From a virus (taxonomy: Duplodnaviria > Heunggongvirae > Uroviricota > Caudoviricetes), in the IMG/VR virus record IMGVR_UViG_2529293213_000030, positions 1 through 16,214 of that record: 16,214 nt of DNA; one strand, given 5' to 3'. Position numbers: made by a program. This document shows positions 1-3,000 of this stretch, one piece after another (the first letter of the stretch is position 1; the number at the start of each line of letters is the position of its first letter).

Positions 1-3000
1 AATCATATTCAAAGAGAGCTGCAACCTTAACATATCTGGTCAGATCTCATGCGACTACTTGACGTACGTAGATAACAACATTTATTGATACACAGGATGT
101 TACGGACATAAAAAAGCCAGCCACTGGGGGAGGCTGGCAAACTCGTAGAGCAAAATGCTGTTACGCAAACTTCGTTACAGGGTCATCCTGCAATACAAAA
201 AATACACAATATTTAGAAAACTAATAGTGCCATGTGCAATTTTTAAGATTTTGTTATTAATTGTGGTCGCACCTTCCTTTCTGTGTACTTTCCGTATAGC
301 TCACAGGATTCTGGGTACAAAAAAACCCGCGCATCGGCGGGTTAAGCAGCGTGGCAAAGTAACCACTCTTAACACATTACAATAACTTTTGCGTACGCGT
401 TAGCTCTTTTGTATATTTAACTTTTCTCTAATTCTAAAGGTAAAAGGTAACGACTAGTGAAAGCGAACGACTACCTGTTTGGTCTTCAGGCAAGAAACAT
501 CTCTTTCAGGCTTCTTCAAGGCGAATTAAAGTATTTTAATATGAAGTCAGCTAGGGGGTGGACAGAGTTGCTATCTGATTATGCAAGTAATAATGAAAAG
601 GATATAATAAATAATCTCAAGGAGATTTACCTCAGCCAATTGAATTACAGCAATCGGGCCGTATTTTTTGCTCAACTGAATAATATCACTGACGCAATCC
701 TCTTGAAAAAAACCTTGTTAAATCTGATTAACAGCAACGATAAAGATTATCAAGAATACATTGCCACCTACCCATTGCCAATAGATAGCGCAACACATAA
801 AAAAGTCAAAAAATTAAGACCAGTCTGCATCTCCCACTCTCAACATGGTAACTCGATCACTATTACAACAACTTATCTTCGTCCATTCAAAGAAAGAAGT
901 GCAATTGAAACAAATACACTAAGCCCAGCAACACAAAAAGAACTCAATTGTTTTGATGAAATAATTGGAATAAAAGATAGATACATCCAATGTTTTGACA
1001 CAATTACTTTTAACTATGTTTCCGGCGAAATAACATTTGAAATCGACATGTGTACAAATCTTAACCATAATGAATTGGAGCGCGCATCAACAAGATATCG
1101 TAGAATATTAATGTACCTTTTCCATAAAGAGAATTCATATCACGTCGCCTTCATTAGAAAAAATATATTTACTGCTATCGATAAACTTTACAAATCTGCC
1201 GATGGTACCATTTTAAAACTTGGGCATGCCACAGGAACAGGCTCAGTAAAAGAAGAAAAAATGAGAAAGAGAAAAGATGATTTAAGGAAGGAAAAATATC
1301 ATGCCGCAGGCTTAGCGGCAATTGGAGGAAAAACTAATAACTTTAGTATTTCTAAACAATGGAATGGAGCACACAATAACATTTTAACAATGCATGTACC
1401 CGGACATTTTTCTTTAATTTCATCCTCGCTACCATTTATAAATCATGTTATAATCGAAGGGTGTGTTTGTAAATCAGATTATGAGTTATTGATGTCAAAG
1501 GTTTTCTAAATGAATAAGCAGGAAATGAAAGATATCATACAACATTCTTTTGCTACCGACAGCAAAGTTGGTTTTGCATGTATGAATATTTATCATTACC
1601 TGCTTAATGAAGATCTGGATAATTTAAAATATATAACATTCAATAACTTGCAAAAAGTCAGTAATGTTGATCAAAGTATCCTTTACGAGGCAATTACTTA
1701 TCTATCCGGAGAAAAAGCACCAATATTATCAATCGGATACGAATATATTGATGGTGATGACATTTTTGAAATCTCTCAAGATGAGTTAAGCAAAATATAT
1801 TCAGAAGGAACATTTTATTTCGATGGCAAACCAGTCCTCAATTGGCAGTCGAAAGTTTACATTTACTTTTATGCATCAGAGTTCTGGAAAGGCCTAGAAT
1901 GATGGATAATCAGAATAATTTTACGTTAGAATCGCTGAAGTCCGCAGCGTCATTCGATGAGAGCGCAGCACGCCTTTATCGAAGAATTACATGCAATTCA
2001 TACGATAAATTTATTGAAATGTTTTATATTGACTTAGAAAAAACAATCAGATTGATTGAAAAAAATGCAAGCTTAATGCAAAACGATGGAGAAGACCGTT
2101 TATCTATAGAAATAATTAATATACTAATTGGCTTCGGATATGATTCTGGTCATGATAATTATATAAATGGGCACTCAGACATTGTTGTAAGTTTCAAAAA
2201 CTACACATGGATTGGAGAGGCTAAAATTCATAGCTCATACGACTATTTAATGGAAGGATTCCATCAATTATGCTCTCGTTACTCCACAGGAAGTGAAGAT
2301 GATTGTCAAGGAGGATTAATAATTTATGTGAAAAGCAACAATGCATTAGATGTCGTAGAGAAATGGAAAAAAACATTAACCTCTAAAAAAGATGACTTTG
2401 AAGATTTTTATTTATCCGATTGCAAAACAAGAGAAAAGTTGAGCTTTTACTCTAGCCACAAACACCCTAAATCTGGATTGCCATACAAAGTAAGACATTT
2501 CGCTGTAATATTGGGATTTGCACCTAAAGACAAAAGTGCGAGAACAGCAAAGTCCAGAAAATAATAAGTTTTATTATCTGGACCAAGGCTGTTTTTATCT
2601 ATTTAGAATACACATAATACCATCAATAAATCCAAGTGCACTTTGCAACTCCTTTCTAATAGTTCCATCCGAGCATTTCCGCTTCTTTGCGATTGTACGG
2701 AGTGAAATCCCGATAACAAAGTGAGCAATGATCAGCTCATATTCTTCTGGTTTATATTTCCGCAACCGGGCCACACATCCATCAATCATAATTCCTTCAT
2801 CATCATCGCACTGGAGACGTGACTTTTTACCGTGTGGTAGAAGCCCCTTGAAACCAGCCGCTATCGGCTGCCAGTCGACACCACTATTTTCTGCTGCAGC
2901 CCAAGCCCCCCAACGATCTAAAACTTCGTACATATCACGCATCAGCGCAGCACCTCATGCACCAGTTTTTCAAACTTTCCAACTTTGGTTTCCAGCTCTG

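Follow-up and report, generated by a model that had tools for sequence, protein, structure and literature searches.

What is a three-gene cassette doing between the Q antiterminator gene and stx1A in a prophage that carries Shiga toxin (Stx)? The question is raised by IMG/VR virus record IMGVR_UViG_2529293213_000030, positions 1 to 16,214 (16,214 nucleotides, all of which we refer to as the window), which corresponds to the left arm of a lambdoid, Stx1a-converting prophage of Escherichia coli O145:H28. The cassette consists of g1 (457-1509, 350 aa, GTG start), g2 (1510-1902, 130 aa), and g3 (1899-2564, 221 aa), all on the plus strand. An earlier note on this DNA had picked out a candidate PD-(D/E)xK nuclease core in g3, while warning that so short a motif could arise by chance. 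Our answer is that g3 is probably an active, metal-dependent PD-(D/E)xK endonuclease, and the effector of an anti-phage system of the DS-21 type that the prophage carries as cargo.

We begin with the nuclease. The peptide on which the proposal was built, EDRLSIEIINILIGFGYDSGHDNYINGHSDIVVSFKNYTWIGEAKIH, is found exactly in the 221-aa translation of the plus-strand open reading frame (ORF) at 1899-2564. RefSeq places the start of g3 at 1899 and the phage record places it at 1902, giving 220 aa; residues are numbered here from the ATG at 1902. A homolog search returned 85 proteins, of which 58, at 32-67% identity to g3, were aligned. Only 16 columns of this alignment are invariant, and five of these are E64, D93, E106, A107, and K108, the residues of the motif itself; G90, H91, W103, Q122, and Y127 are likewise unchanged. 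A motif kept without change in all 58 homologs is no chance match. On the plus strand, the catalytic core extends over 2091-2225, with E64 at 2091-2093, D93 at 2178-2180, and E106-A107-K108 at 2217-2225.

The AlphaFold2 (AF2) model of g3 is a confident one, with a mean predicted local distance difference test score (pLDDT) of 94.1 and a predicted template modelling score of 0.89. It places E64 at the start of a helix (64-77), D93 directly before a strand (94-98), and E106 and K108 within the next strand (101-109), followed by a helix (113-127) that holds the invariant Q122 and Y127, and a further strand (136-143). This is the canonical alpha-beta-beta-beta-alpha-beta order of the PD-(D/E)xK superfamily, with the superfamily's active-site layout of an acidic residue in helix 1, an aspartate at the start of strand 2, and E-x-K in strand 3. 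The layout that the earlier note had read from the sequence is therefore borne out by both the model and the alignment; its gap of about 14 residues between D and E-x-K is 13, which is near enough. Structure comparison, which the note had suggested as a check, found a restriction-endonuclease-like fold, and the closest folds are those of the type II restriction enzymes BamHI, BglII, BstYI, and OkrAI, at 9-11% identity. From these enzymes g3 differs in having an additional N-terminal helical region (residues 1-60) and C-terminal strands, and in being accompanied by two accessory proteins rather than a methyltransferase. The toxin domain CdiA-CT EC869 is also a structural neighbor (12% identity).

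Searches by sequence return much less. There is no significant match to g3 in Pfam, NCBIfam, or PADLOC (where the best model, PDC-S54, scored a non-significant E = 0.008), and none in sequence and profile searches of the PDB; a Pfam scan of the family members gave just faint HamA matches in two of the 58 homologs (E = 0.03). By predicted fold and conserved catalytic residues, then, g3 encodes a restriction-enzyme-like nuclease, and we would expect it to cleave phosphodiester bonds in a metal-dependent manner.

What such a nuclease might be for is suggested by a relative that has been challenged with phages. DS-21 (working id TOXO), from an E. coli (ECOR) strain, comprises three hypothetical proteins (365, 140, and 211 aa), and was scored as defensive by DeWeirdt et al. 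(DefensePredictor, Science 2026; PMC13092281, Table S6). Systems in that study were tested against 24 phages in MG1655, each on a low-copy plasmid and under its native promoter (PMC13092281); DS-21 brought plating of Bas1 down by ~4.5 logs and that of Bas11 by 2 logs, and led to small plaques with Bas3, Bas9, Bas67, and T3 (PMC13092281, Table S7). The authors already call the DS-21 nuclease a PD-(D/E)XK enzyme, report an HHpred match (94.7%) of DS-21C to LmuA, the PD-(D/E)XK effector of Lamassu, and list a DS-21 protein in their AlphaFold3 summary table (PMC13092281). Their Table S10 enters the g2 protein of our window (WP_001041173.1) as a “Predicted novel defense gene,” with a log-odds of 6.3 and in a cluster of its own (PMC13092281).

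When compared with the DS-21 sequences of Table S8 (PMC13092281), g3 shows 35% identity to DS-21C across 211 residues (E = 5e-39), the GED, GH-D, and GEAK motifs align, and all four catalytic positions are kept. The g2 protein is 26% identical to DS-21B over its full length (E = 1e-7), and g1 matches DS-21A both by BLASTP (E = 3e-8) and in a comparison of family profiles by hhalign (probability 99.7%, E = 1.8e-25, 342 columns). Hidden Markov models (HMMs) of g1, g2, and g3 score DS-21A, B, and C at E = 8.5e-36, 1.7e-27, and 6.4e-57, respectively. The two systems have in common three homologous genes that are colinear, co-directional, and of similar sizes, with the PD-(D/E)XK gene last; they differ in sequence (20-35% identity only) and in the setting of the window copy, within an Stx prophage between Q and stx1A. 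On these sequence matches the cassette is a divergent, prophage-borne relative of the validated, mechanistically uncharacterized DS-21, and it would be expected to protect its host in turn. Accession searches of main texts returned no match, and the link to DS-21 came through supplementary tables; PADLOC 2.0 (2023) has no DS-21-type model.

The arrangement of the trio is widely conserved. A profile of g3 run against 1.84 billion cluster representatives retrieved 793 proteins at E ≤ 1e-3, 383 of them at E ≤ 1e-30. By HMM, g1, g2, and g3 are colinear and co-directional in most of 59 species genomes encoding a g3 relative, which include Gamma-, Beta-, and Alphaproteobacteria, Cyanobacteria, a Flavobacteriaceae (Bacteroidota) genome, and others; in several of those seemingly without the full operon, the contig ends at the operon. 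Gene sizes are conserved in order (~350, ~130-140, and ~210-250 aa). A Mu-like prophage and Lysobacter carry the trio; in Anabaena it lies next to XisH/XisI and ParE, in Bradyrhizobium next to an MmeI-type enzyme, and there are relatives in phages of Klebsiella, Moraxella, and Acinetobacter. All three HMMs match a 6.1-kb mobilizable Klebsiella Col-type plasmid (L072), on which g1 is unannotated and crosses the record origin. A 14.8-kb PM2-like prophage of Vibrio (L073:1351-3626) has matches to g1 and g3; the gene that separates the two encodes 141 aa and was not picked up by the g2 HMM. The majority of homologs sit at non-phage chromosomal loci. At two loci a gene of the trio is split by ~1.1-2 kb, g2 in L054:4738-7812 and g3 in L068:6536-9546, most likely due to inserted DNA, and these systems are probably inactivated.

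Within E. coli, 23 of 5,426 complete genomes hold the exact cassette, with an identity of at least 99.4% and a chromosomal location in every case. Stx2e prophages of pig strains are among the carriers, and in them the cassette occupies the same site beside the same Q gene. In one of them (E. coli cq9, pig; L010:6149-8256) the cassette is 99.8% identical, and on its other side lie a DNA methyltransferase gene, three tRNA genes, and stx2e.

The second gene is best understood through its fusions. The g2 protein has no family or structural relative in Pfam, NCBIfam, PADLOC, or PDB searches, and PHROGs places g1-g3 only in families of unknown function (12777, 11490, and 9664). A word-index homolog search for g2 found only near-identical copies, and further homologs were drawn from syntenic loci. 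Some of these loci have replaced both g1 and g2 by a single gene with a g2-like tail. In Sagittula and Ruegeria, it is a complete Type ISP restriction-modification enzyme extended at its C-terminus by a g2-like domain; in Sphingopyxis, a Type I HsdR that ends in a g2-like tail; and in Litoreibacter and a Sulfitobacter metagenome-assembled genome (MAG), a complete three-domain EF-Tu. In each case, g3 follows immediately after the tailed gene. The g2-like domains of the Type ISP (~1770 aa) and HsdR (1170 aa) proteins match over their full length at 30-31 bits, and g1 is absent from these loci (L047:2521-7830, L059:2494-7824, and L049:4318-7827).

In the EF-Tu fusions (L050:6089-7831 in Litoreibacter roseus and L063:6224-7972 in the Sulfitobacter MAG), the GTP_EFTU, D2, and D3 domains run without a stop codon into a linker and the g2-like domain (~residues 461-573). 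The two copies differ in sequence, and the fusion is therefore not an assembly artifact. As the ORF upstream of the Litoreibacter gene is not EF-G, the fused protein is a paralog outside the str operon. On visual inspection, that upstream ORF (L050:4044-6002, 653 aa) resembles a GHKL-type ATPase (“LVSNSFDADAS...DDGEGIS”) with a nuclease-like motif at its C-terminus (“RIDIML...IIELKRAKK”), and it may be another defense gene. As far as our searches tell, the pattern of g2 fused to HsdR, Type ISP, or EF-Tu and followed by g3 appears to be new, and it suggests that g2 is probably a coupling domain.

The nuclease has fusions of its own. From about profile position 35 onward, the g3 domain forms the C-terminal domain of NACHT-HEAT and NB-ARC proteins of 712-1226 aa (P0105, P0111-P0114, P0118, P0129, P0206, and P0228), mostly with HEAT repeats. 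Within this set, the HEAT repeats of P0118 come with no more than a weak AAA_16 match, and in P0228 the g3 domain is joined to a LexA-like S24 peptidase domain. The occurrence of g3 at the end of NACHT-HEAT proteins also appears to be new as far as searches tell, and it is consistent with g3 being a portable effector.

This leaves g1, for which Pfam, NCBIfam, and PADLOC gave no significant match and sequence and profile searches of the PDB found nothing. Its model appears to carry an RdgC-like fold, again apparently new as far as searches tell, and the protein is probably nucleic-acid-binding. Because g1 holds the slot that is otherwise taken by restriction enzymes or EF-Tu, we propose that it is the sensing or guarded component, perhaps as a sensor or DNA-binding subunit. 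The most conserved stretch of g1, “GHATGTGSVKEEKMR..DDLR.E.YH.AG,” has many invariant residues and lies at residues ~250-300 (window ~1204-1356). The same residues are the lowest-confidence part of the AF2 model (pLDDT 65-80), and they could form a flexible interaction or nucleic-acid-binding element.

Taken together, the fold of g1, the fusions of g2, and the fusions of g3 suggest a sensor, adaptor, and nuclease logic. The RdgC-like g1 would act as the sensor or guarded component, and g2 as a small adaptor that both tethers and restrains g3. On detection of an incoming phage, g3 would be released or activated and would cut nucleic acid, most likely DNA, so that the phage is stopped or the infected cell is killed. 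A bolder version, which we put forward only tentatively, is that g2 and g3 are a portable “guard” module: g2 would dock a latent g3 on proteins that phages attack or mimic (HsdR, Type ISP, the EF-Tu paralog, or g1), and a phage inhibitor that binds or modifies them would free the nuclease, with g1 and the EF-Tu paralog serving as decoys. There are precedents, in that the PrrC anticodon nuclease with EcoprrI and the Lit protease with EF-Tu both couple a latent effector to a host protein attacked by phage. The parallel is with the g2 domain on HsdR, Type ISP, and EF-Tu beside g3; the differences are that the effector folds of PrrC and Lit are unrelated to that of g3, that the coupling here is deduced from gene fusions, and that the partner in the window is g1. 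If true, the guard module would extend the PrrC-EcoprrI and Lit-EF-Tu logic to one modular family.

Several points weigh against the reading of the cassette as a DS-21-type defense system with this division of labor, and they should be kept in mind. The window cassette is only 20-35% identical to DS-21, and might differ from it in phage range or even in activity. The main text of the source paper does not take up DS-21 (PMC13092281), and we found no mutational or mechanistic work on it. The likeness of g1 to RdgC is moderate (template modelling score 0.36-0.42, root-mean-square deviation 7-10 Å), and the adaptor and sensor roles are drawn entirely from domain fusions and fold similarity. Lastly, known defense genes are only occasional among the nearest neighbors in the 59 genomes. 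The 103 nearest flanking ORFs at the 59 operons are heterogeneous (integrases, MobA, transposases, kinases, and one MmeI enzyme), and because they are mixed and of mobile-element flavor, we do not claim a defense-island association. The cassette is also no member of Lamassu or Hachiman. It lacks the NTPase of NACHT/STAND NLR-like proteins and any SMC-like (LmuB) or helicase (HamB) partner of the kind that accompanies Lamassu LmuA and Hachiman HamA, and g3 has no significant match to the PADLOC models of these systems.

Which other explanations would account for the same data? The one that fares best accepts the defense system and changes the substrate: g3 would be an RNase or tRNase that cleaves tRNA, perhaps in EF-Tu complexes, and halts translation as a form of abortive infection. 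CdiA-CT EC869 is a tRNase that needs EF-Tu/Ts and GTP, and its structural likeness to g3, together with the EF-Tu fusions, therefore keeps a tRNA target alive; unlike g3, it is a toxin that is secreted, acts between bacteria, and is paired with an immunity protein. On the other hand, the closest folds to g3 are endonucleases of double-stranded DNA and most of the partners act on DNA. We regard an RNA target as possible and rather unlikely.

Less probable still is that the trio is a toxin-antitoxin-like addiction module, with g3 as toxin and g2 as antidote, that stabilizes a prophage or plasmid without any genuine antiviral role. The small, tightly coupled operon does travel on mobile elements, its pairing of a nuclease with a small partner matches the toxin-antidote pattern, and the 6.1-kb Klebsiella plasmid also carries a RelE/ParE toxin-antitoxin pair. 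Against this, the DS-21 homolog gave phage-specific protection of up to 4.5 logs, the conserved 350-aa g1 would be left unexplained, and the fusions, with restriction enzymes and NLR-like proteins as partners, suggest immunity, although the two roles can coexist.

We give very little credence to the idea that g3 is an orphan type II restriction endonuclease, or a lytic-cycle nuclease for host DNA breakdown or recombination with an RdgC-like partner. It would fit the type II enzymes as closest folds and the association of RdgC with recombination. However, domain scans of g1 and g2 and the neighbors Q and stx1A reveal no methyltransferase in or beside the cassette, and identity of 9-11% with no Pfam match does not place g3 in a restriction-endonuclease family. 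The cassette is, moreover, of foreign GC content and transcribed against both neighboring phage operons, and most homologs lie at non-phage chromosomal loci. A restriction-modification system was also considered and rejected, because there is no cognate methyltransferase. Inactive PD-(D/E)xK domains do occur in other families, and g3 might by analogy be a dead enzyme that serves as a binding module only, but invariance of the four catalytic positions in 58 homologs and DS-21C is a pattern typical of active enzymes and makes this highly improbable.

Returning to the cassette as probable prophage cargo, its placement deserves description. Over window positions 1-3200, several O145:H28 chromosomes and phage Stx1_14040 (LC567819.1) show 100% identity. 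The cassette genes have a GC content of ~31-35% (~33% overall), compared with ~52% in the adjacent phage DNA. Q (115 aa) is encoded on the minus strand at 2595-2942, stx1A starts ~119 bp to the left of window position 1, and both of these flanking genes run opposite to the cassette. Ordinary Stx1 phages match window positions 1-374 only, and the cassette-bearing Stx2e prophages match 309-3200; segment 309-374 is the only stretch common to the two. A strong GC-rich terminator lies inside it on the minus strand (343-324). A second hairpin with a T-run, seen by eye, is located at ~145-113 on the minus strand, upstream of stx1A.

Because other Stx1 phages share just 1-374, the plus-strand region at 375-456 moves together with the cassette. 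A promoter belonging to the cassette presumably lies here, along with a ribosome-binding site for the GTG start at 457; a scan for consensus promoters reported none within 375-456. The stop codon of g1 (TAA) directly abuts the ATG of g2, and the ATG of g3 overlaps the stop codon of g2 (ATGA at 1899-1902), an arrangement of abutting and overlapping codons that indicates translational coupling. At the far end, a hairpin followed by a U-run on the plus strand (2540-2596) takes in the stop codon of g3 and the 30 bp that separate g3 from the convergent Q. Its RNA folds at -24.8 kcal/mol (z = -6.3), and none of 200 shuffled sequences is as stable. This is the probable terminator of the cassette, possibly in both directions. 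Scans for promoters and terminators gave no convincing placement of the late promoter pR' (with the qut site of the 115-aa Q) relative to the cassette. Whether early or late transcripts cross the cassette in antisense upon induction is a matter of speculation; the cassette might be turned off during the prophage's own induction by late transcription running antisense to it, or by read-through from the Q operon.

The remainder of the window is that of a lambdoid prophage, with genes for an integrase, a CI-like repressor, Rha/Ash regulators, and O-, DnaC-, and DnaB-like replication proteins. Early region genes lie at 8433-8690 (minus), 6607-7641 (minus), 7644-8387 (minus), and 12027-13090 (plus). 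The same region has a YdaS-like (Cro-type) gene facing the CI-like repressor gene (8793-9512), two tandem Rha-domain regulators, one with an Ash domain, and two neighboring Ead/Ea22-like paralogs.

At the family level, the central claim was already made in the 2026 literature, and what the fusion architectures add is a concrete idea of mechanism. Three “hypothetical proteins” that sit beside stx1 in clinically important O145:H28 strains and beside stx2e in pig strains can now be identified as a probable anti-phage system with a restriction-like nuclease effector. The survey of fusions, in which one nuclease module turns up in combination with restriction enzymes, EF-Tu paralogs, and NLR-like proteins, provides testable leads for DS-21, namely its effector, the residues to mutate, and g2 as the probable coupling domain. 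For the pathogens themselves, a defense system on a toxin-converting prophage could shape infection by phages, therapeutic phages included, and thus the persistence of the prophage.
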